Shown piece after piece: positions 9,201 through 42,300 of a DNA stretch of 64,000 nt. This DNA is from Ascidiella aspersa (lineage: Eukaryota): NCBI GenBank assembly GCA_963924565.1, contig OZ004609.1:11098001-11162000 (forward strand), given 5' to 3'. The notes under the pieces are model-generated. The model saw nothing but the letters and a program-made list of their open reading frames with translations. It was not told where the DNA came from and did no database searches. Each line of letters begins with the position of its first letter. Positions within the stretch are counted from its first letter, which is position 1. A program made the position numbers and the translations under genes.

Positions 9201-12200
9201 AGTTTACAGCTCAATCCCACTTGTACTTTAGCAAACTTGTCTAATCATCTCTACACCACTGTACAGTACTATAGATTTCCCCATTTCAAATATCTACATC
9301 TTGGTACATATGACTTTGCTATATGAGTGTGCAAATTGCGAAGTAGGTTGACTCAACACTTACTAACCAGCATCGCTGTTAAGTTGAACAATAAATTTGT
9401 CCACTAAAAAGTGATTATGTGTTCAAAATACAGTTTCTTTTGAACCGATTTGTTCAAATATAAATAGCATAAATCTAAACATATATAGTCAAGCGGGGTA
9501 AAAAAAAACAATTTTAGCTAACTTTTGTTTTTCGCAACAGAAGTGTAATTTTTCATTCTTATTGAGCTGATGGGTCTACCTTCCCAATCACATAAAGAAT
9601 TTTTAATTTTATTATGAAATAAAAAAATTATTTTACAAAATCTGTTTTTTTTTTTACCCTGATGAAAGGGCAAAGAAAAACAATGCCGGGGTAAAAAAAA
9701 AACAAGTGTACATTAGGACCATTTATAATAATTTAGCAGGTTTGACTTTATTTGAAGTAAATAGACCAAAAATGCTCTTTTAAAGCCACAACAACACACA
9801 AATTTCATGAACACCTTTATTGTAAAGAGAATTTAAGTAAAAAAAATTTTTTATGATTACATTATGGTACCTGAATTTGCACCTGTTTAAAATCTTTTTA
9901 GCAACTAATTTCTCCCTGGTAAACTAAAACTGTGCCATTCCACAGTTAGCACTGGTCATCAGTGGTATTTCTTGGCCCCAGAAGAAGTAAATTACCTCAA
10001 CAACATGAGTTTTTAGATTTGTGGGCCAGTTCGAGGACAACCTGGAATTATTAGATTTTTCTTCTTTTTTTGGAAAAAAATTGCTAAGTTGGCTTTATTT
10101 TATCCTAATCATTACAAAAAACGTTCATATTTTCCCCCTATGTTATGGGACAAGTCTAAATTGCTCAAGTCTACCTCTGTGATCTGCACTTGTTTAGGTT
10201 CTGGGCCACTTGTTATATTTTATAAAAATAAGTTTTCTACTTTTTCTACTAAGGTAAATTTATAGAAGTTTAACATCTCAAGGTAATTACTTCCTACTGT
10301 TAAGGCAAATTTTGATCAATTAACCTGAAGAAAATAACTCTAGAAGTTTGAATTTATTCTATTTTGCCTGTTTGAGCATAATAATACCTTCATGTGGTAT
10401 TGATTTGGATCGCGATACACTTAGTTAAAAATATCGGGTATCGCATCGGTATCAGAATAATTTTTTTTCAAGTCCCTATTCGTGACTGATTAATTTCATC
10501 AAATGTTTCACTTTCTCTGGCACTTATATTATTCATTCATTTTGGTGTATAGCTTTAAATTTTTATGAAGCTTTGGTATTGGACCATTGGTACATATTTG
10601 CTAGGCATATTTAGTTTACTTTTTAAACCTAAAAATTACAAAAAAAAATTATGGGGTAAAAAAAATTACATTGCGGGAATAAAAAACACTGTTTTTTTTA
10701 CCCAGTTCCCATAGAATCGATCGGGGTAAAAAACAACAACAAAATATCTAAAAAAATAAAACAGCTAGGAAAATAAGGTATTTTTTGTTTAACAGATCTA
10801 TGTTATGACACAACACAGAATAAAGGCCGTTGCCACAAACTTGGTTGTATACGAATTACACAAACGTTTCTAATGGTCTTACAAACCTTTTTAAGATACG
10901 TATTTAACAACTGTTGTTTAAAGGCATAACTTTACTCAGAGAACAAAATTTAGGATGCTTGAGGGGTAATTGGTTAGGCCAAGAAACTAATTTTTACCTT
11001 AAAAAAGAAATTATATATACATTAGGTGTGATGGCATTGTTTTTTTTACCCCAACTTTAGCAAAAATTTTTTTACCTCAAGTGACTATACATGTACATAA
11101 GTTTTGTTTGATTAAAAGTCTGGCTATACATTCACACAAGAAGTATTACCAAACCTGTAATATTTAAAGTAAAGTTTCCATTTCTTTTTGTCCAGCTGCT
11201 ACCTTGCTGGACTTTATCAAGTTTGGGATTTGGCACTATTTTAAAGGGGATAATTTCTTTGATTCCATCCAAGACAAAATTGAGTTCACCAGAAGACTGC
11301 CTCACTGTCTCTTTAAATAAGAATTTTGTCAGTATATAAACATGATTTAAAGAATAGGCTACTTAAAAGCAGATAAATATATTTGTTTCCCAAAACAACA
11401 TATTCACTTATAATGTGAAGTTGTGATTGATTACTGACCCATTGGTGGCACACTAAAAAATAAGGTATCCCCAGATATATCAGGAGTGCATTTGATTTTA
11501 AAGGCAAGATTCCCAATTGTTAGATTAACATAGGGATTAGATACAGAATTGAAGTTTCCACCGCTGACCCTTCTAGTTACTCCTCCACTGAAACACAAGG
11601 AAAACACCATCTATTTTATCGTGGTAGGTAACTTAAAACAAACAACAAATTATGGAAAAAATTTGTCAAAGAAGTTTGGTAACCATTGTCAAATTAAAAA
11701 AAATTTTTGCTCCTACCTTTTTATACATTTCACTTGACGTCTCCCGCTAAACCAGGGGTCTTCAAGGTAGTAAAATTTTGAGGATGCATTGAGGTGTGCA
11801 CCATCAACAGAAATGACAACTTGTTCTTTTTCTGGATTGAGGTGAGTTTCCAATTCCAACGGAGATGTGGTACAATGGATTTTGTCACTAGAGATGGAAA
11901 ATATCTTGCAAATAGAACCTGAAACATTAACAACAGCTTCGGAGCCAACATTCAAATTTTCACCCAAAACTGTAAGATTTGTTCCACCACTTTTCGGCCC
12001 GAATGTTGGAGAAAATGACCTTATTGAAGTTTGAACAAATGTGAAATTGGATTGGGATGTGTCAGTGCCATTTATGCTGTAAAGGTCGTTGAAGTATTGG
12101 GGCAACCTGGTCGGAGTAAATGAGTGAACAGATATTTGAAGAGGGGCAGATACAGGAGGATTTTTAAAATATTTAGAACTTTGGTTCACTGAAGTTGTTA

Positions 12201-14046
12201 AACATTCAAGATAACTGTAGCTGCTAATACCGACAGGAATGCAAGATGCAATATTACCAATCTTGATTATTTGAATTTGCCTTGCAGAACTAATTGTGTG
12301 ACCAAGAGCGTCACCTTGTATCTTAATTAGAGTATTTCCTTGAAGTGGACCTGACTTTGGTGTGAAACCTGATATCTTAATTGGGCATGTTGTGTCTGAC
12401 CAAACATCCTTGCAAGCTTCTCTGGCAGAACAGATGCGTGATGAATAACAAAATCCACAGTTAAGAAAGCGAATGTGCATGCACTCAGCACATGTTTTAG
12501 CTGCCCCGCATGCAGCAACTGTAGGAATCTTGTAGAAAGAACTTTCACCGATAGCAAAAATGGAGTCGTTGTTTTGGGAAACCTTCAGATTAGTTAGTGG
12601 TTTGTTTGTGACTTCCACTGAAGCCTCCTGTACTCCAGTAGGTTGGTATGAATTAAGATTGAATAATCGCAGTTGGCCGTCAAGGGTTCCGATTGCAGCA
12701 ACTGTTGTGTCTTTGTAGATAAATGTTGTCAGTGAAATGAGCGTGGAAGAATTTTTTAAGTCCGTTTCTTCATTTTGAACTAAAATGTTTTCATAACAAG
12801 CTGGAATGTTTGCTTCAATATAATGATTTTTGTTCGTAGCAGTTGAACCTGGGCAACTTACAGCAGGCTGATCTGGGTTTGGTGCATCGCAATTCCTTCC
12901 TTTAGGAAATTGACCCTTCTGAAACAAAAATTCCAAACCAGGATCAAATTGCTTCTGATTATTACAGGTCTGTATTGCCATGTCGAATCGTGCTACAATA
13001 TCCTTCATTGGAAATGCACACAAAACTGTTCCCTGTGATAGATCCAGTTGATCAGGAGTGTTATCCATAGGGGTGCCTGCCAGGACAAACAGCATCGCAG
13101 CTGTGTTGGTCACAGGTTTGTTTGAGTTGCATTTGTAAGTAGTGAATCTATTATTTACAACATATGAAAAGTGTGCGTCAATAGTAAGGTTGTATTTCTT
13201 TTTTGCCTTGCTCCGACATTGCAGAATTAGCTCAGTATAACTGTAAAATGCCTGATCGTTGTTGCAAACCCGTGCAAGTTTAATGTTGAGTTTCGAACTT
13301 GTCTTTACAGTTCTTCGTTGTCTAGTCAAAAAATATGTAAAACCACTGTACGTAAAAGCATAGATATAATCAATTTTGTAGGATTTCAAATAACTTTTGT
13401 GCACAGAAATTTCTGAAAAAATTTCCAAATCTGTACGATTAGTTACTAACTGGAAACCACCATTAAGCAACTTTTTTCTTGATAGCGATTGTTGCATGTT
13501 CACCGGTATGGTAGAATCCAAAGTGCGTGCAAAATAGAACACATTGTCTTCTGTTGGATCCGTTGACAAAATTCCAACTGTACTACCAGTCTGACTTACT
13601 ATATAATCAGAGTTAATAGAGTTTTGGTTAAGTGTAGTAAATGATGTTATGTTTGAAGTTGAATGCATTCGACATATTCCGTTATTTAATGTACCACAAG
13701 CAATGAAATGTTGTCTGTTAGTATCAAACAGCAACAACTTAACTTGATTGTCCAAAGTAGTTTCTGTTGGCAATGTGTTGCTATTAGAAATGTTGCAGAC
13801 ACACTGAAGTCTGCTTTTATCATAACAAGATGTGCTAAGAAGTTTTAAGTCTTTAGTAAGGCTATACACTTTGTTATTTCCTCCAATAAAGATTTTTTCA
13901 TTGGTGGGATCAATCACATAGGAAAAAATTGAAGATCTGCTACAATCAGAAAAAGTCTGTATTTGACTGTTGACTTGTGATAAACAGGGTGGAACGTACA
14001 TCAGTATGACTGAAAACAAGATCCATACCAGAACATAAACAGACAT
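76..14046 (-). CDS. MET: MET/RON-family (HGF receptor-like) receptor tyrosine kinase, 17 coding exons, ~1530 aa
   Basis: Exons (minus): 14046-11717, 11587-11439, 11310-11155, 9182-9063, 8995-8853, 8585-8461, 8156-8032, 7692-7552, 6848-6707, 5114-4982, 4361-4141, 2968-2799, 2601-2491, 1994-1872, 1214-1140, 640-448, 211-76; all GT-AG and phase-compatible. Signal peptide, SEMA, PSI, 4 IPT, TM, then kinase ([32 protein letters not shown]) and the YVNV docking site. The last four exons are less certain. Confidence 0.9.
448..640 (-). CDS. MET-like tail exon with two D-E-x-G-Y-L-L-P motifs
   Basis: [11 protein letters not shown] and [11 protein letters not shown]; phase-compatible. Confidence 0.7.
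1140..1214 (-). CDS. MET-like tail exon (Ser-rich)
   Basis: TTTGCAG / GTCAGT, 75 nt, open, phase 1-1. Confidence 0.6.
1872..1994 (-). CDS. MET-like tail exon (PVPPPR)
   Basis: TTTCCAG acceptor in phase 1; alternatively this exon reads on to a stop at 1858. Confidence 0.7.
2100..2270. repeat. two diverged ~70 bp direct repeats ~100 bp apart
   Basis: GGGTGTAAT...TTTTAGGACAAAAA(A)CAAA.CAA.GCACC at ~2100 and ~2202. Confidence 0.6.
2491..2601 (-). CDS. MET: MET-like docking-site exon
   Basis: [14 protein letters not shown] matches MET YVNVKCVAPYPSL. Confidence 0.88.
2799..2968 (-). CDS. MET: MET-like kinase C-lobe exon
   Basis: [28 protein letters not shown]...RPEFKQLV...HY. Confidence 0.92.
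4141..4361 (-). CDS. MET: MET-like kinase exon (DFG, activation loop)
   Basis: [16 protein letters not shown]...[12 protein letters not shown]...DVWSF...WELVTRG; not in the ORF track, translated by hand. Confidence 0.94.
4982..5114 (-). CDS. MET: MET-like kinase exon (catalytic loop)
   Basis: [39 protein letters not shown]. Confidence 0.94.
5290..6279. mobile_element. non-autonomous hAT element (deletion derivative) in a MET intron
   Basis: 16 bp perfect TIR CAGGGGCGTGCAACCT; TSD GTGTAAAT/TTGTAAAT; transposase remnant ALFGSTYVC at ~5814-5840. Confidence 0.85.
5870..6185. mobile_element. hAT MITE nested in the previous element
   Basis: TIR CAGTGGT(A/C)GGCCAACT; perfect 8 bp TSD CACTAACA. 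Confidence 0.9.
6707..6848 (-). CDS. MET: MET-like kinase exon
   Basis: [17 protein letters not shown]...[16 protein letters not shown]. Confidence 0.92.
7552..7692 (-). CDS. MET: MET-like kinase exon (Gly loop, VAVK)
   Basis: [11 protein letters not shown]...VAVKTLSRI...FLREG. Confidence 0.92.
8032..8156 (-). CDS. MET: MET-like exon (juxtamembrane to kinase start)
   Basis: [25 protein letters not shown] resembles MET [25 protein letters not shown]. Confidence 0.85.
8461..8585 (-). CDS. MET: MET-like exon (TM end, juxtamembrane)
   Basis: [13 protein letters not shown] followed by the basic stop-transfer KKNKRK. Confidence 0.85.
8853..8995 (-). CDS. MET: MET-like exon (IPT4 end, start of TM)
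   Basis: FNVTVFLG...ELGSIDI...AIVAPIVAV. Confidence 0.8.
9063..9182 (-). CDS. MET: MET-like exon (IPT4)
   Basis: [23 protein letters not shown]...LYCH; TTTTGTAG / GTAAGT. Confidence 0.8.
9486..11087. mobile_element. non-autonomous DNA transposon-like element with internal GGGGTAAAAAAA repeats
   Basis: Ends TAGTCA...GGTAAAAAAA / TTTTTTACC...TGACTA, flanked by TA; motif repeated in both orientations (~9494, 9650, 9687, 10653, 10692, 10722, 11041). Confidence 0.65.
11155..11310 (-). CDS. MET: MET-like exon (IPT3/4)
   Basis: GELNFVLDG...VPNPK...LNITG; phase 1-1. Confidence 0.8.
11439..11587 (-). CDS. MET: MET-like exon (IPT3)
   Basis: [21 protein letters not shown]; TTTCAG acceptor, GTCAGT donor. 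Confidence 0.8.
11717..14046 (-). CDS. MET: MET-like coding exon 1: signal peptide, SEMA, PSI, IPT1-2
   Basis: ATG 14046 ([16 protein letters not shown], hydrophobic leader); SEMA motifs ([22 protein letters not shown]); PSI CxxCxxC; [13 protein letters not shown] and [10 protein letters not shown]; donor AG|GTAGGA. Confidence 0.93.
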
Positions 14047-14071
14047 TATGTAATACCAGTTTAACAAACAT

Positions 14072-14275
14072 CTAAAAAAATATAAACATACATTTTTGTA
14101 CTTCAACCGATAATGGATTTTTTGCTAGTACACCATAATCGGTTAATTCAACCTTTTAGCAAAAATATATTCATGGATGTGTAGGATTCGCACAGGTCAA
14201 AATAAACAAGATGACTAAAGTGTCAAGATTAATAGCGACACAATAAACTATAACTCACAACTGTACAGTACTTAC
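14072..14275 (-). other. probable 5'UTR intron of the MET-like gene
   Basis: GTAAGT donor at 14275 and TTTTTTTAG acceptor at 14072, 25 nt before the ATG. Confidence 0.5.
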
Positions 14276-17200
14276 TTTGCCAGTTAACAAAACAACATCA
14301 GACGTTACTTTACAGAAGTTAAGGGCAAATTAGGTTGCCTAACAACCATCCCAGGTTGGAAACTATAGCCTGCGCAGTTTCTTGCTCAGCCGCGGTCATA
14401 GCCACGCATTTCATGTAAAATTCGGTGAGTCGTGTGAAGTCACTCAAACGCACATAACTTATGTCGCGCTAACAGTTTTCAGTATAGTACTCCATTTTTA
14501 GCCATATAAATTTCACAAATAACATTATGACAGCCGCACAAATTTGGGCGGAAATGTTATTACAGCCGCGCAATTTCAAGCTGCAAAAATGCGTCCCTAC
14601 GCAAAATTAAAGTTTCCAATATTCCAGAAGTAGTACACGGATACAGCCTTTACATAGGACACAGCCCGACGGGATCCACCCAGTCTGAATTCTGTTGCTG
14701 GTGAACTACCTATATATATTCCAAATTGGACACTTTGGCACAGAGGGGATTTTTATGCAACTTAAAATTGGGCGGCTGTAATACATTTATAAATAATATT
14801 GTGTGCACACCTGAATTAGCAAAATTTAAATTTCATATTAGATTTTTGGCCGTTCGGGTTTGGTCTGTTGAAAAACAATCGGGGGTGCACTTGTCACACA
14901 GGTAGAAGTTATAAGGCTTGCAAGATATAGGGGCACTGCTTTTTGGGTGCACATACCAATATTTGCAAATTTGTGTGCACACTTGAACTGGTAAAACTGG
15001 CACACCTAAATAAAACTGGTACACTTCCATTTTAATTTTTTCATAAGAGTCTTACTGCTGAGTGCTGATTAAGTTAGATTACTTTAAGTAATGTTAAACA
15101 TGTTTTAACAATGTATTTTAAGATATTACACAATGAAATTTCGAGCTGCGTTATTTCCTTTGGTTACAGACTACACACGTCTGAAAATAATAATACGATT
15201 TTGCAGTAATATTAAATAACATGACCCACCCTCACCCAAACACTATTCGACACTCTAATCAAAATATTGTGCGTTGCTTTAATAATTGTTTCAACGCTGT
15301 GATAGAATTCTATACCAGCGCTATAATACGCAATTCTAACTTTTTTTTTTTTGGTTCAACTGACAACCGGGTCAAGTTTGCACCTAGCTGAAAACCTACC
15401 TTCACTTTAAAGCAGTGATTCTCAACCGCGGCTCTCACTAACTCATTGAAAAATTAATTACTTGTACCAGAATTGCCACGAAGTAAGTAAAACATATTAA
15501 GAATTATTGTCTCAGCAAGGATCCGGTGTACGAAGTACTAATCTTACCAGGGGACTACCTTGCTGTGTACAATCATTTTGTGGATTGTGACGTCATAATA
15601 TATTTTGTCTTGATCGACAAGCTATGGCAATAAGAGATAGCTATTTTAGCAGTGTTAATTAGTTAGCCTAGCCTAGCGTTATGTCAGAGCAGCCTACTGA
15701 GAAAGCTCGCACTCTTCAGCAAGAAAATCGGACTTTCAAAAGGGATTAGGAAGAGAAACATTTTCAAATTGAATTAGATAACAAAGCTCATTGCCTTTTG
15801 TGTCCTGTGGTGAATAGTAGTGTAAAAGCTTTTAACGTTGAGAGGCACTACAAAAGTCATTCTGCAAAGTATGATGCCTACGAAGGTGAATCAAGGAAAC
15901 AGAAGTTAGAATTACTAAAGTAAGCACGTAACAAGCAAACGAATATGTTTAAGTGTAATAGCGAACCTGAAGAAATAACCATGGCATCATATAAGGTTAG
16001 CCATTTACTAGCCCGCAACATGAAGCCATATTCAGATGGTGACATTATGAAGCAGGCTATTGTTATGTTTGCTGAAGAATGTTGTCCTACTAGCATTCAA
16101 CTTAAAGCAAAGAAATTACAGCTTAGTAATGACACAGTAACTCAACGCGTTGAATGCATATCTAATGACCAGCATGAACAGTTTCTTAACCAGTCAAAAA
16201 AATTTGTTTACTACTCGGTGGCACTTGATACCTCAAAAGACTTCACCGATATAGAGCAACTAGCTGTGTTTTTCAGGGGAGTCATGGCAAACTTTAATAT
16301 TTATGAGGAATACCTCACTTTGCGCTCCATTCATGGCACAACAAAAGGAATGGATATATTTCATGAATTTCAAGCTGCTCTTCAAGAAGCACATTTGGAT
16401 CCAAAGTTGTTTTCAGTGGCAACTGATGGGTGTCCTTCTATGCTTGGTGCAAATCAAGGACTTCAAGGACTCATCAACAAATGGCGTGAAGAAGATAACC
16501 TAGCTCCCGTGACATAGCATCACTGCATTTTACACAAAGAAAGTCTCGCTGCTAAGTCTTTGAACATGCCTAGTGTAACAAACGTATGAACAACAACAGT
16601 AGATTGGATTGGAACAAATGCACTTAACCATCGTAAGTTTAAAAAGTTTCTCGCAGATATTGATGCTGATTATGGTGACGTTGTCATGTTCACTGCTGTA
16701 AGATGGTTAAGCCGAGCTAAATGCCTCAAGAGATTTTATGATCTACCAGAGATTAAACTGTTTGCCGAAGGGAAGAAAGACATCCCACAACTCGACAATG
16801 AACAATGGATAGCTGATTTTGCATTTATGGTTGATATCACTACCCACCTTTCATCCCTAAATCGCACCCTGCAAGGAAATATGAAGTTTTGTAATGATTT
16901 GTATGGCACAACATCTGCCTTCATTAAAAAGCTTTGCATTTGGAACACGCAACTTTAAAGTGGTGTTACAACGCATTTTCCTACTCTTTCAAATCATTTT
17001 CCTACTCTTTCAAACGAGACAGCGGATCACTTGATACGTATAACAGACCCATTAGCAACTTGATTGAGGAATTCGAACGTCGCATTAACGGAATGCATTC
17101 TTTTTTGCCTTTGATGAAAACATTTGCTACACGTACACCTATGGCAATAGAGGCAGCCACCGCTCCTGATAAGTTTCAGTTGGAGCTACTTGACATGCAG

Positions 17201-17336
17201 TCCGATGTCGAGCTGAAACAAGCATTTCAAAGTGAAGGTCTACTCGACTTTTGGGGTCGAGTCCCAGAGAAAAATATCCCAACTTAATAAGTAATGCCCT
17301 TAAGTATGCCTCTGTATTTGGTTCAACTTACGTATG

Positions 17337-17469
17337 TGTGGTAAATTTGTGCCATGTACCTTATTCTATGTTATGTATTACGCTGTGTTTATTTGTGACA
17401 TGTTGTGTTGCAGGTAATGTTTAGTTTAAATTCAGTTCATAAAAACCTAGCAATCCCTAGGTCACCACA
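17337..17469 (+). repeat. 5' LTR (133 bp, TG...CA)
   Basis: TGTGGT...ACCACA inverted termini; identical to 20096-20227. Confidence 0.95.
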
Positions 17470-17470
17470 A

Positions 17471-17482
17471 TTTTATGAACTG
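17471..17482 (+). other. self-complementary primer-binding site
   Basis: TTTTATGAACTG is the exact reverse complement of LTR 17433-17444 CAGTTCATAAAA; no TGG tRNA-type PBS. Confidence 0.75.
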
Positions 17483-17518
17483 CTTTGTTAACATTGACCT
17501 TGTGCTTTACCAATCGCC

Positions 17519-18280
17519 ATGGAGAGACTGATGAGGCCAGACCGTCTGGAACTTGATCCCAATGACCCAGAGGCCATTAAAATGTATAAACATTGGTGGC
17601 GTTCATTTGATGGTTTTATTCGAGCCATTGAGAAAACACAAAATAGCCATCGGAGTGGAACCAGCCAAGAAACAGGTGGTGTTATTACTTTATCATCAGA
17701 AGAAAAATTAGACCTCCTTGTCAATGGCATATCACATAAACTCTACTCCTATGTAGAATCCTGTGAAACCTTTCAATCTGCTAAAGAGACTCTTAACAAA
17801 GTTTTTCTGAAAGAAAATAACATCACAGTAGCTCGTCATTTATTGATGGTGAGAAAACAGAAACCGGATGAGAACCTAACTGATTTCATGTATGCTTTGC
17901 ATGAGCTTTCTAAATCCTGTGATTTTCAGGATGTCGATGCAGATACTTATCGACAAGAAATGGTTCGCGACTCCTTTATTAGTGGCATGGTAGCCCCCGA
18001 CATCCGACAAAGACTTCTTGAGAAAAATAAGGTTACCTGTAAAGAAGCCTTCGATCAAGCCTTGGTGTTAGAACGAGCAAGGAATGAGGCCGTGACCTTT
18101 ATTAAGGAAACTACAAATGTGACCATTGCAGCCGCAGAGACTCCTGAGTCCACTGTTTTTGCAATAGCTAAGAAAGATTGTTTCTACTGTGGAGGTATGC
18201 AAATAGACCCACAGCGCGTCGGAGTTCAGCAAGTGTTTGAAGCCACTCTTGGACATGCCCGTGCCTCAAACACTTGCTGA
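17519..18280 (+). CDS. gag: retrotransposon Gag, truncated in its zinc knuckle
   Basis: RPDRLELDPN...HW, RHLLMVRKQKPDE, VRDSFISG...IRQRLLE; only CFYC of the CCHC knuckle remains. Confidence 0.85.
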   Translation: MERLMRPDRLELDPNDPEAIKMYKHWWRSFDGFIRAIEKTQNSHRSGTSQETGGVITLSSEEKLDLLVNGISHKLYSYVESCETFQSAKETLNKVFLKENNITVARHLLMVRKQKPDENLTDFMYALHELSKSCDFQDVDADTYRQEMVRDSFISGMVAPDIRQRLLEKNKVTCKEAFDQALVLERARNEAVTFIKETTNVTIAAAETPESTVFAIAKKDCFYCGGMQIDPQRVGVQQVFEATLGHARASNTC

Positions 18281-20012
18281 ACTCCGACGCGCTGTGGGTC
18301 TATTTGCATACTATGCCCGTTGGGTTCATCAGTTTTCAGATAAGGTTCGACCCCTTGTCAAAGCCATTCAGGAAAAGGCTCTCCCATTGGCTAAACCACA
18401 AGCTATGGCTTTTGCAGAGCTTAGAAAAAGTTTGGCTTCCGCCTGTCTGAAAAATATTGATCCTTATCAACCCTTTACTGTGGAGTGTGATGCCTCCCAA
18501 TTTGCACTGGCCGCTACCCTGAACCAATGTGGTCGCCCTGTCGCTTTTTACTCCCAGACCTTTACAAAAAGCGAACTCAACTACCCTATCGTGGAGAAGG
18601 AGGCTACAGCTATTATGGAGGCTACGAGAAAATGGAGTCATTTCTTGCATGGTAACACCTTTACATTATTGACTGACCAGCGTGCTCTTTCTTATATGTT
18701 TGATCCTGTCCGCCCAGGTAAAATTAAAAATGCTAAGTTCCAGCTGTGGCGAGCTGAACTGGGGGCCTTTTCATATCGCGTTCACCACCGTCCTGGTAAA
18801 CTAAACACTGCTCCGGATGCCCTTTCAAGAATTTCTTCTCTATGTTTCATGGGAAATGCTGGACTAGTCCAAATCCATAGGCAATTGGGGCACCCTGGGG
18901 TAACACGCCTACTTCATTTTATAAAAGCGCGCAACTTACCTTACTCTATTAATGAGGTTCGGCAAACATGTGCAGAATGTAAAGTTTGTGCCGAAGTAAA
19001 ACCTCGTTTTCACCGCAAGTCTAATGAGTCTTTAATCAAAGCTTCTGCTCCATGGGAAAGAATTAGCATTGATTTTAAAGGACCTGTCAGGGGTAGAAGA
19101 CATTACATTCTCTTTGTGGTGGATGAGTTTTCCCGTTTTCCTTTTGCAATTCCCTGTTCTGACATGACTACGAAAACCGTCATAGCTTCGCTAACTTCAC
19201 TTTTTGCTCTTTTTGGTCTACCCTCTTTCGTCCACAGTGACCGGGGCACAGCCTTTGCTTCTGGTGAATTTAAAAAGTTTTTGACCGATAGAGGAGTGGT
19301 ACCAAGTCGGACTACTCCCTATCATCCTACTGGTAACAGCCAATGTGAAAGAGTGAACCAAACCATATGGCGAACAGTTAAACTCCTTTTAAAGGACAGG
19401 GGTCTGGGAGAAGATAGATGGGAAGAAATCTTAGTGGAGGCCCTTCATTCCGTAAGATCTCTGCTTTGCACCTCAACAAACCAAACCCCTCATGAGCGTT
19501 TCTTAAACTTCGGACGAAGAACTATGCTGGGAAGATCATTACCATCATGGCTGCTCCAGCCTGGAAAAGTTTTGATGAGACGATTTGTGCGAAATAAAGG
19601 AGATCCCTTAGTTGATGAGGTAGACTTGCTGGAAGCCAATCAAAGTTTTGCACATATTCGGCTTCCAGGGGGGCGTGAATCGACAGTGTCTGTGCAGGAT
19701 TTAGCTCCTTGCCCTGAAGACCATGAAGTCCCTCCACTGCCAGATGCAGAATCCTTTGGCGAGTCTCTTGAAAATGGAGTCCCAATTTCTACCAATTCGC
19801 CTCCCCATACTACTAGGCCATCTACAGGTACTACACCAGAATCTGCATTGGACAGATCATCGGTAGAAGATTTGGCTCATGGTACAGATGAGTTACCTCC
19901 TACTTCACCTTCTCCTTTTGCGTTTCCACCTGCTTCGCCTACTGGTTTGCAAGTGAGGCGTTCATCCAGAATTCATAAACCCCCTTCACGGTTTGGGGAT
20001 TGGACTCATTAA
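18237..20012 (+). CDS. pol: partial Pol: RT connection, RNase H and integrase
   Basis: RNase H CDAS/EKE/TDQ/DALSR; integrase HHCC (H..LGH...C..C), IDFKGP, SDRG, SQCER; first in-frame ATG 18255. Confidence 0.92.
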   Translation: MKPLLDMPVPQTLAELRRAVGLFAYYARWVHQFSDKVRPLVKAIQEKALPLAKPQAMAFAELRKSLASACLKNIDPYQPFTVECDASQFALAATLNQCGRPVAFYSQTFTKSELNYPIVEKEATAIMEATRKWSHFLHGNTFTLLTDQRALSYMFDPVRPGKIKNAKFQLWRAELGAFSYRVHHRPGKLNTAPDALSRISSLCFMGNAGLVQIHRQLGHPGVTRLLHFIKARNLPYSINEVRQTCAECKVCAEVKPRFHRKSNESLIKASAPWERISIDFKGPVRGRRHYILFVVDEFSRFPFAIPCSDMTTKTVIASLTSLFALFGLPSFVHSDRGTAFASGEFKKFLTDRGVVPSRTTPYHPTGNSQCERVNQTIWRTVKLLLKDRGLGEDRWEEILVEALHSVRSLLCTSTNQTPHERFLNFGRRTMLGRSLPSWLLQPGKVLMRRFVRNKGDPLVDEVDLLEANQSFAHIRLPGGRESTVSVQDLAPCPEDHEVPPLPDAESFGESLENGVPISTNSPPHTTRPSTGTTPESALDRSSVEDLAHGTDELPPTSPSPFAFPPASPTGLQVRRSSRIHKPPSRFGDWTH

Positions 20013-20083
20013 AAATGAACCCTTAAAATTGTTTAAATGAAACAATGTTTTTTTGTTGGGTGTACAGTGTACTTTCATTATTT

Positions 20084-20095
20084 AGAGGGGAAAAA
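20084..20095 (+). other. polypurine tract
   Basis: AGAGGGGAAAAA directly before the 3' LTR. Confidence 0.85.
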
Positions 20096-20227
20096 TGTGG
20101 TAAATTTGTGCCATGTACCTTATTCTATGTTATGTATTACGCTGTGTTTATTTGTGACATGTTGTGTTGCAGGTAATGTTTAGTTTAAATTCAGTTCATA
20201 AAAACCTAGCAATCCCTAGGTCACCAC
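20096..20227 (+). repeat. 3' LTR (terminal base and right TSD not recognisable)
   Basis: 132/132 identical to the 5' LTR, then interrupted by a foldback repeat. Confidence 0.95.
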
Positions 20228-20351
20228 GTTAGGGTTAGCATTTGGGTGAGGATGGGTCAAGTAATATTATGTTTATTATTAATAATAACTTGACCCACCC
20301 TTAACCAAACGCTAACCCTAACCCACACAATATGCGTTGTGGTATGCGGCA
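20228..20351. repeat. foldback repeat with telomere-like GTTAGGGTTAG arms
   Basis: ~40 bp imperfect inverted arms (20228-20270 / 20282-20322); related sequences at ~15215-15350, ~23900-23940, ~35980-36058. Confidence 0.7.
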
Positions 20352-21399
20352 TTTAAAGAAAGCTTTTTTTTTATTAATTTTCACGTACATAAGTGAAAGA
20401 GCGCCGCTTCTCCTTACTGCACCCTCTCCTATTATGCCTCGTTTTGACACACTTGTAAAAAATCAAAATCAGTGTCAAACTTCACATTAAACAAATTTGC
20501 ATATTTTTTGTGCTGTTGTGACTTGTTGTTGCTTTCTTAAGTAATGTTTCTATTTAGAATTAGACAGTTGTTTTCCATGCGGCTCCTTGCACACCGTAGG
20601 TTCGAAATTTGGCTCTGGCCGTAAAAAAGGTTGAGAACCACTGGTCTAAAGTCTAAACTAAAAAAAAAATCCTGTTATGCGATTAGTCACAATCTGCGAC
20701 CAGAGGTTAGTACAAATTCAGTTAGTAGCTTAATACTATTTTCATTAAGCAGAAGGTTCTTAATTGTGGTCATCTACTCTATTTCTCGTGCTTCTTTACA
20801 GTTTTTCTTTACTTTTTCGATAACAAATCCTTAAATCGCCTCACTTGTTCGCTGGGCGTCGGTCGCGCATGAGTGATCACCTGAAGCTAAAAATATATTT
20901 AATTGTACTTTGTGGAAATACAGTTGTTTTCCCTTATTTCGCTCCATAATCCTTTGTCTTAGAGTATTCGAAAGCGAGTTTACTTTCACAAACCAGAACA
21001 CTTAGCTTTAATCCGGACAAAAATAAATGTCAGAGATCTTTTTACGCCAACGTAAAATACCCACACCCAAGGGCGGATTCAGGGGGAACAATTAATGTAA
21101 ATCATCCGGCTAGCCACTTTTGTCTATAAACTGGGCACAGGCTATTTCTCATATTTTTGTGGCTATTTGTACTGCGCAAATATAGCCTACCAGTACCACT
21201 TTTTCTCGCTTGGTGCAAATCTTGTTCCCGCATCTATTCTATACGCAGTAAGCCTAGTAGGCCCTATGCTTTGCGTTTGGAGGATATCTTTAAGTTAAAC
21301 CTCGATTGGAACCACCAAAATTAAAAGTTTCGCAAACTTTTTGGATCTGAATGCATTTTTTTGCACTTCACACGAATCCACTGTGTTAGGCCTATAGAC

Positions 21400-39300: not shown

Positions 39301-42300
39301 GCCCGGGCTAATGTGGAAAACCTTGGCCCAAAAAAAAGACACAACGACGACGACGACGATTATTAGCTGCCGGGCGCGCTAAAGGTGACGCAACTAAAAA
39401 GCACACGCCGCCGGCTAACTGAGCGCTAGCAGTCATCACAATGGCACTTTGACGGGCGGAGCCAAGTATGCGAACAATTTATTTGGCGCCTTTGCCGATG
39501 GAGAGCAGCGTATATTTTTGAGGCAGGTGCCACTTGCTCGCGATAACGACCTCGTAATATTCCAACGCATGTCGGTCAAAGATAAAAACCTGAAAAATAG
39601 TGGATACAATGGTGACTGGCATCAATAAAATGTCGACGGTGCTGGGATCAAAACGCAGCCAAATGCTGTTAACAGTAAACTTGGAGCATTTTATTCCTGG
39701 TATTTTTGCGGCGAACTCGAACAAAGTTCGACGTTTGCTGCTAATGTTCCCGCTACCCACTCAGGTACATAAGAATGTGCACACCATAGGCGCCCACGCA
39801 GTTTACCAGCAGAGATTTGGCTTGCACGGCGAGCGGAAAAGGCCGTTTCGTCGGTAATTTAGATAGGATTTGGCAAAACAAACATGAGCGGTACCGCACA
39901 GGGCGGAGCGTCGCAAAAATGGCAACAACAGACCCGGCCTTTACTCGGGCGTCCACTTTTCACACAAACAGAAAAGCGACGTGCGATGACAGGCGGAGGG
40001 GTTCGCTTTTCCTAGATGGACGCTGTCTTAAAAACGACAATCACCTCGAATCTTTCAAGCGACGACCGAACGCCGAATTTTTTACTGCAAACTGCTGAAA
40101 AGACGCGTGTATATTTATCGTGTAGCAAGCGTGGCGTTCATGGAAGTGCTCCGCGCGACCGCACAGCCGACCCGACACAGTGTTGAACTCTCGCGCGTCT
40201 ATAGAGAGTCTCTGCAATCTGGAGGGATTGCGTTGATCCGCGATAAAGGCGCACAAGGCGAAAGATCAAGTACGGATAGCGGATAGCACCGCCACCATAG
40301 ACAACAATCCGCCGCGGCTGACATTTTAGCGCCGCGCGATTTGACAAGCGTCCAGGTAAAGGGCGCCCGGGCGATCTTAAGCCCGGGCGATTTCGGGCAG
40401 CGTTACATAATGGGGAGCTTTGCGCGAGATGTTTGACAGCTAAAACGGCAGGGACGCGTCAAACCCACGCACAGCTCGCTGGAGGACAACAAAAGACGTG
40501 CACACGCCCACCTTTGCATGGAACGCGCGCATGGGCGCGTTGAGCAAGAGGGCAATCTGAGCGTTGAGCAAGAGGGCAATTTGCGCTGCTCCAATACTCT
40601 ATAAAGGCACCAAATGACGTGCCACCTTTGGATGGGACGCGCGCATTGGTGATCCTGATACAGCAAGAGGACAGCAATTTGCGATGCTCCAAACTCTATA
40701 AAGAAAAAATGATGTGCCACCTTTGAATGGAACGCGCGCAAAGGCGACCCTGATACAGGCGTTGAGCAAGGGGGCAATTTGCGCTGCTCCAGACTCTTTA
40801 AAGGCACCAAATGACGCCACCTTTGGACAGGACGCGCGCATTGGCGATCGTGATACAGCAAGAGGACAGCGATTTGCGCTTCTCCAGACGCGACAATAAA
40901 GAGTGATCTACCGTTTGGGAAGTAGCGGTCGGGCTCTTCCAGTCTACCGATCACCACCGGTCGACGAAAGTAATCGAAACGGTTTCGGATTACGTCGCTG
41001 TCGCTATGCTTCTTCCGCTTCGGTCGCCGCGAAGCCGTGGACAAATTGACAGGCGACGGATGCGTCGACGGAGCGTGATGCGACGCGTCCGTTTCGTCAC
41101 GGGACGCCGGCGGAGCGCGACAAACATCGGCGAGGTTGACAGAACGCCAAAAGGCCCTAATCGGTGCAAGCTATGTGGCGCGTATAGGAAGCGAGTCGCT
41201 GTGTTTCAGCCAGTTTACATGGACGGCTCGGCGTGGGGTTTATTTTATTTCATAATCTTAAAAACACAGAGAGCATTTAGAAAGGCAAATAAAATCAGTA
41301 GACAGTTAGGTTTAAGCAAAACTTTAGACCTAGCCATATAGAGCCTTTGCCTTGTCGATTTAAGCTACTACGACTCAAATTTAGGCCAGATAGAGGGGAC
41401 CAATAAATAAGAGACCACACTATGGAAGTTTAAATCACTTGTGTCTTTGCATGAGTAAACTACAACGAGCTTCATCGAGCTCTTAAACGCGGCATTATAA
41501 TCTAAACATCAGTCGAGAGAGGAAAATACGATCCCTGGGCAAAATCTAACACGGAGTTTGTTTGTGTTAGACTGCGTGTGAAGAACAACCAACTGAAACT
41601 GCAGACCGAAACCTTAATGCACGGGAGAGACGCCGCCTATGATTTTTTGATGATGGGCGATGGAAATTCCGAAAGCACGGCTTCTGGCAGGGCGCTGCAC
41701 AGAAAAAGAAAGAGAGGCCTTCCACAGCACAGCAGAACACTGCAGCGCGCTGCACATGGGCGTGTGCGTCATGGAAATCCAGGAAAGCACGAGCCACTTT
41801 GATGGGGATCGAATTTCAGCGCGCCACGGAATTGTTCCAGTCTCAACATATGCGATGTTGAGCGCCTATAATATGATTAGATCCAGAGTCGGTGAAAAGC
41901 GCAAGACAGGATGTTCCACCATCGCGACTTCCTACCTCACTTCACACAATTTCAACCGAAACGTAAATAGGACTTTTTGCACAAGAACTGTCACAGGGGT
42001 GTGGAAGCCGACGCGCGCAGTGGGTGGGAAGCACAGTCGCACGCAATGCACGCTAATGTCAATTCATTTCGGATATTTTCGAAGGAAGACACGTCCAATT
42101 CAACTTATATGAACACAACTCGAACGATTAGCATTGGCAGTGGAATCATCAGTGACGCATGTCGATCTAGTGTCTGATCAACGCGCATCCGTTCTTCGCA
42201 CTATATATACATGCCCAAGCTGCAGACATAACAAACCTCTCACTGCAGCTTTTTTAAACTAAACACCGCAGGCTTGCAGCCTTCAACGCCTGCTTTTATA

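Follow-up and report, generated by a model that had tools for sequence, protein, structure and literature searches.

A probable fold-back scar in an internally deleted, probably dead copy of a young Ty3/gypsy element of Ascidiella aspersa, whose parent clade is predicted to self-prime

The 2.9-kb LTR element at positions 17337..20227 of the window (the whole stretch of 64,000 nucleotides analysed here) appears to be a lone and probably dead copy of a young 4.17-kb Ty3/gypsy element that has lost part of its interior, protease and reverse transcriptase (RT) having likely gone together in one fold-back event; we put the probability of this reading at roughly 0.86. Ty3/gypsy LTR retrotransposons with internal deletions that leave them defective are well known, and the window copy is a defective copy of a known kind of element that adds only the presumed scar of a fold-back. 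As posed, the finding matters little, being one more broken retrotransposon copy, and it neatly illustrates how a deletion can carry a templated fold-back insert. The self-priming predicted for the parent clade is more interesting than the deleted copy itself.

Structure of the deleted copy

Most of what an earlier note had described from the letters of this element stands. The two LTR copies are identical over 132 nt (17337-17468 and 20096-20227), although the true LTR is 133 bp long and the 3' copy lacks the last A. The polypurine tract is intact at 20084-20095, and Gag is open from Met 17519 until it is severed after CFYCGG, in the first half of a zinc knuckle as had been claimed. The RNase H-integrase frame has the 591 native codons reported for it, counted from 18237, and is refined to 601 codons from stop to stop. 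Protease and RT are indeed absent: Pfam finds RT_RNaseH, rve and Integrase_H2C2 in the window copy and neither a protease nor RVT_1, unlike in a full-length copy, where protease, RVT_1, RT_RNaseH, rve and Integrase_H2C2 are all found. Other details change. A missing YxDD motif, read as a sign of lost RT, is not diagnostic, since the full-length parent itself has YLDN; and the junction is not a clean deletion, because 18197-18236 is an inverted copy of downstream sequence. As to cis signals, 5' LTR, primer site and polypurine tract are intact and the 3' LTR is short of its last base. The features of the element are as follows.

17337..17469, plus strand: 5' LTR of 133 bp, TG...CA, identical to both LTRs of the full-length copy L031 and of the deleted copy L040
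17433..17444, plus strand: predicted self-primer, an LTR stretch complementary to the primer-binding site (sequence complementarity, fold)
17471..17482, plus strand: primer-binding site of 12 nt, complementary to the LTR, without a leading TGG (fold z -5.3; shuffles)
17519..18196, plus strand: native gag, 226 codons, cut within the first of two zinc knuckles (open reading frame and translation)
18197..18236, minus strand: 40-nt inverted copy of downstream pol sequence, standing for 1,320 lost nt
18237..20012, plus strand: native end of RT (thumb/connection), RNase H, integrase and low-complexity tail, 591 codons (open reading frame, Pfam)
20084..20095, plus strand: polypurine tract, the same in other copies
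20096..20227, plus strand: 3' LTR of 132 bp, its final base missing by comparison with the LTRs of other copies

Full-length relatives

Eleven other two-LTR copies were fetched from the genome, which also contains solo LTRs and fragments; a whole-element search scored 40 of 67 candidates and an LTR search 40 of 61. Five of the eleven are full length at 4.16-4.17 kb, and the full-length partners that the earlier note had proposed to look for exist, as autonomous copies with identical LTRs. One of them, L031, is a single frame of 1,264 codons that comprises Gag, two zinc knuckles, protease (DSGA), RT, RNase H and integrase; its Pfam domains (protease 320-407, RVT_1 517-660, RNase H 748-851, rve 944-1037) stand in the Ty3/gypsy order PR-RT-RH-IN. 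The family has TG...CA LTRs, a polypurine tract and a target duplication of 4-6 bp (5 bp around most other copies and solo LTRs), whereas the window copy is without the duplication and without its last base. The parent is thus a young 4.17-kb single-ORF Ty3/gypsy element, and its full-length copies are the nearest relatives of the window copy, which differs from L031 at 6 positions in 2,851 shared nt. The parent has YLDN, and among scored relatives YxDN or FxDN occurs in 75 of 93 and YxDD in 18 (27 of 120 were unscored), so that RT could not have been called missing from the lack of YxDD alone.

Damage is common in the family. The six other two-LTR copies (L036-L041) are each broken at a place of their own, L037 to L041 by private deletions of 70 nt or more and L036 by rearrangement. 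L040 has lost about 2.56 kb, yet its LTRs are identical, it is flanked by a 5-bp target duplication and it shows a single private change, so that young age and large loss coincide in this family. L040 is a second example in this genome of a defective, internally deleted Ty3/gypsy copy, and the window copy resembles such copies in its single locus, private breakpoints, near-identity to full-length elements and leftover frames; it differs in that its break holds a 40-nt fold-back inversion rather than a plain join.

Three of the other copies have peculiarities of their own. L036 (G000:C4:3142064-3149753) spans 7.7 kb; most of its pol is duplicated internally, some 780 nt are of other sequence, and a target duplication is absent. 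L034 and L035, 65 kb apart on G000:C5, have common flanks and represent either a segmental duplication or an uncollapsed haplotype.

A junction found at one locus

Parent positions 861-2180 (1,320 nt, covering the rest of the nucleocapsid, protease and RT) are absent from the window copy, and the 40 inverted nucleotides of 18197-18236 stand in their place. The result is a hairpin with arms at 18195-18243 and 18263-18311, complementary at 48 of 49 positions around a 19-nt loop, with a predicted fold of -100.2 kcal/mol (z -14.4). When the junction was searched in the genome, as had been proposed, a 121-nt query matched over its full length at one locus only (22 of 22 candidates scored), and at the gag-side break all 10 other loci that reach it continue past, towards protease and RT; L034 and L035 are among these 10 and, sharing flanks, may be a single insertion. 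Both results support the one-off deletion that had been offered as one of two readings.

The other reading was a non-autonomous, RT-less subfamily, mobilised in trans and itself supplying Gag, RNase H and integrase, whose further copies would now have to lie in unsampled individuals. It draws some credit from the intact LTRs, primer site and polypurine tract, from the open frames of the Gag capsid region and of RNase H-integrase, and from the existence of non-autonomous partners that keep one gene, such as RLG_Quinta, which keeps Gag according to excerpts of PMC11302176. Like RLG_Quinta with RLG_Cereba as described in those excerpts, the window copy lacks RT and keeps cis signals and some coding sequence; those, however, are multi-copy families with a history of their own, whereas here there is one locus and no sign of selection. 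Uniqueness was judged in one assembly, and sister insertions may exist in other individuals, but instead of two or more independent insertions with the same junction there is one locus; the nucleocapsid knuckles are gone; RNase H-integrase is not in the Gag frame and follows a 49-bp hairpin; all private changes alter amino acids; and the nearest relatives are full length. We consider this subfamily very unlikely, and the window element is probably one damaged copy.

The open RNase H-integrase frame fits one damaged copy equally well. It lies +1 relative to Gag. Past the cut, the Gag frame continues through 27 foreign codons to a stop at 18278-18280, the first Met of the RNase H-integrase frame (18255) sits in the hairpin loop, and the remaining Gag has no intact nucleocapsid knuckles. 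Parent-type elements package RNase H and integrase as part of one Gag-Pol frame, and in the parent both domains are found within one such frame. With L036 left out of the alignment, 3 substitutions in 2,851 nt are private to the window copy. All 3 change an amino acid, and one of them substitutes an RNase H Arg that 105 of 108 scored relatives have (12 of 120 were unscored). The frame itself has 2 private changes, too few for dN/dS, and shows no sign of constraint. Since only 3 private substitutions have accumulated, the frame is expected to be open without selection; at a divergence of only 0.1%, an open frame is uninformative about function. We infer that the frame is a leftover that would be neither translated nor packaged, and that the copy would supply nothing in trans. 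A programmed frameshift from Gag into RNase H-integrase, for which a +1 shift would be required, was considered and rejected, no basis for it having been found.

The probable fold-back scar and the insertion site

In the parent, the right break falls precisely on an already existing imperfect inverted repeat of 7 bp that encloses the 19-nt loop and includes one bottom-strand G-T pair. At the left break there are 2 nt of exact microhomology, or 7 nt if a 3-nt bulge is allowed. These features suggest a sequence of steps in which the bottom-strand 3' end would have folded back onto the 7-bp inverted repeat, copied about 42 nt of itself, and then rejoined in gag. The hallmarks of snap-back SD-MMEJ are present (an inverted primer repeat at the break, a templated insert and microhomology at the rejoining point), but the same would be expected from an RT fold-back, and the geometry of the break is compatible with both snap-back repair and RT folding back during minus-strand synthesis. 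Snap-back end joining yields longer inverted repeats of this form according to excerpts of PMC5728401, and the window copy matches that description in its short inverted primer repeat, in a templated insertion that extends the inverted repeat and in a short microhomology on the far side; it departs from it in that its deletion is 1.3 kb with an insert of 40 nt.

What tips the balance slightly is a second lesion at the 3' end of the element, which is inserted in a decayed DNA transposon.

15405..17336, plus strand: left part of the decayed DNA-transposon copy that hosts the LTR element (inverted ends 15404-15427 and 20629-20652; broken ORFs)
17332..17336, plus strand: GTATG, the left half of a 5-bp target-site duplication as would be expected here, without a right partner after the 3' LTR
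20228..20405, no strand: right-hand 178 bp of a high-copy palindromic MITE of 262-267 bp whose left ~85-90 bp are gone
20406..20652, plus strand: right end of the host DNA transposon (inverted ends, empty-site copies)

The host transposon gives no Pfam match at E<=0.01, and we take it to be hAT-like from its terminal-repeat and C-terminal motifs. Its empty-site copies L052-L055 run past the insertion point, and against them the left insertion edge is exact. At the 3' end a second deletion has taken the last LTR base, the target duplication, about 75 bp of host transposon and about 85-90 bp of the MITE. The locus was most likely damaged at least once after insertion, and because it took this second, post-insertion deletion, for the inner break as well we lean modestly towards snap-back end joining of a chromosome break that arose after insertion, rather than RT slippage in minus-strand synthesis. 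The hairpin arms have no new differences and the LTRs are identical, which makes both lesions recent.

That recency could also be read as the trace of one faulty cDNA, integrated abnormally, which would account at once for the inner deletion, the missing 3' base and the loss of the target duplication. The 3' lesion, however, extends through about 75 bp of the host and some 87 bp of the neighbouring MITE and so reads, in the single allele available, as a chromosomal deletion, and we regard a common origin in one cDNA as the least credible of the alternatives. The MITE behind the remnant at 20228-20405 is itself very abundant, with 1,972 candidates in a genome search.

Reads and library artefacts

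The junction is supported by the assembly only. Fold-back chimeras, in which an inversion accompanies an intervening deletion, are products of amplified or long-read libraries, and the junction could be such a library or assembly artefact, the real allele being full length. In favour of this, the junction was seen in none of five read and contig runs (X14, X15, X1, X2 and X3, none of them shown to contain this locus), while the X2 contigs recovered a single-locus deletion of another copy, from 19178 to 19711, which is that of L039. X1 and X3 have zero depth across 18197-18236 (X2 is ambiguous), and an X3 contig carries 1,320 letters of the full-length form between 18196 and 18237. In the raw DNA of X14, of which about 1 in 100 of the run was read and in which a joint was listed only at 3 reads or more, the two breaks show 21 and 16 loose ends that belong to the full-length form, and no joint was listed.

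The same raw reads, however, are without the private letters of the window copy (30 of 30 reads at 18134, 43 of 43 at 19828), so X14 does not sample this copy and neither confirms nor refutes the junction; contigs, for their part, drop rare variants. At 18556, 5 of 45 X14 reads deviate from the majority letter, and that change may therefore not be private. The RNA run X15 has 104 reads on the family, 0 of them assignable to the junction. Further against an artefact, the break coincides with a pre-existing inverted repeat and microhomology, large private deletions are frequent in the family, and the left edge of the insertion is exact against the empty-site copies. Taken together, we judge an artefact to be improbable, though less so than an RT-less subfamily.

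Predicted self-priming in the parent clade

The earlier note had alluded to a self-primer, and as a sequence signature of the parent family it holds, priming itself being a prediction. The 12 nt behind the 5' LTR are complementary to 17433-17444, a complementarity equalled in 1 of 20,000 shuffles, and the fold has a z of -5.3. The LTR stretch overlaps an initiator-like TCAGT and a CATAAA/AATAAA poly(A) signal; across copies the paired stretch holds CATAAA or AATAAA and is compatible with either RNA end as primer. Among 12 copies, primer site and LTR stretch have the same version on both sides in 8 and a paired change on both sides in 3 (possibly one event; in L039 only the 3' LTR retains the stretch), and L038 is mismatched. 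Rewriting of the primer site from the LTR in each cycle would explain such paired changes. Read by eye, the complementarity reaches 16-17 nt in L033, L036 and L040 versus 12 nt in the window copy, as expected if primer sites were rewritten from primers of varying length.

The signature recurs in two relatives. In a sister family with 58% RT-RH identity, a 308-bp LTR and YLDD (L075-L081, L084), the primer site is complementary to the family's own LTR: of 11 fetched loci, 7 gave 11-12 nt, one rearranged locus 25 nt, and 3 had no LTR pair. A metagenome relative, L095 (55% identity, YMDN), has 14 nt of primer site complementary to its own LTR, so that the three families, with unrelated LTR sequences, show 12, 12 and 14 nt. 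As controls, 9 loci of other gypsy families gave 6 LTR pairs; each has a TGG-type site, so called without matching to tRNAs, and complementarity never exceeds 6 nt. The sister-family loci L082, L083 and L085 and the controls L086, L089 and L092 gave no LTR pair and are outside the primer-site counts. Within the sister family, L084 has a paired change on both sides, and in L079 a 25-nt segment that can pair with a more upstream part of the LTR takes the place of the primer site, a second case of fold-back-like copying.

All three self-complementary families fall in one clade of 17 rows, chosen as best hits, with support of 100/100 in a tree of elements other than named references; an uncharacterised Ciona protein, P0025 (55% identity), falls within the same 100/100 clade. 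Of the 10 loci from a metagenome scan only 1 belongs to the clade, and 78 pattern matches in viral contigs include 0 relatives. Tf1/sushi chromoviruses have a chromodomain and a GPY/F motif after integrase, and obtain their primer when RNase H cuts the 5' end of their RNA. Pfam finds no chromodomain in the parent at E<=0.01, and GPY/F is absent from the parent and from all relatives (0 of 102). Self-priming has been tied to Tf1/sushi, Tcn1 and some plant copia lineages (excerpts of PMC7175516, PMC4600332 and PMC6317226). As these excerpts describe Tf1/Tf2/Tj1 and the Tf1/sushi group, the parent is similar in having a primer site that pairs with its own LTR over 11-12 nt, a small stem-loop between the two and no TGG tRNA site; it differs in lacking chromodomain and GPY/F, in its two zinc knuckles and mostly YxDN RT, and in that its self-priming is predicted.

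These observations make it rather likely that a chromodomain-less, YxDN-rich Ty3/gypsy clade of tunicates, echinoderms, nematodes, insects and cartilaginous fish would prime with its own RNA, separately from Tf1/sushi, and would rewrite its primer site from the LTR in each cycle. A literature search, mostly of freely available papers and of their main texts, turned up neither self-priming nor YxDN as reported features of this clade. Cigr-1 reportedly has a 4.2-kb single-ORF layout. The parent shares that size and single ORF and has Ciona protein P0025 in its clade, a likeness by description to the Cigr-1 clade, of which it may be a member. The Cigr-1 clade of Ciona intestinalis is named in the parts of PMC6238403 and PMC8556966 that deal with it, while excerpts of PMC2774666, PMC3670739, PMC2678813, PMC12471100, PMC13524379 and PMC3601003 do not settle the naming of the parent clade. 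If the clade truly self-primes, tRNA-independent priming in animals would extend far beyond the Tf1/sushi group, and this genome would offer a young family whose LTR and primer-site variants are paired, in which RNA ends could put the idea to the test.

Rest of the window

Rfam gave 0 matches over the whole window. At 11713-14124 on the minus strand, an open frame of 803 codons with Sema and IPT/TIG domains resembles an exon of a plexin- or MET-like receptor. A GC-rich block (0.42-0.55 versus about 0.33) extends over 26000-48000; it contains two frames of 255-289 codons without Pfam matches and a 95-bp tandem repeat at 40576-40886.
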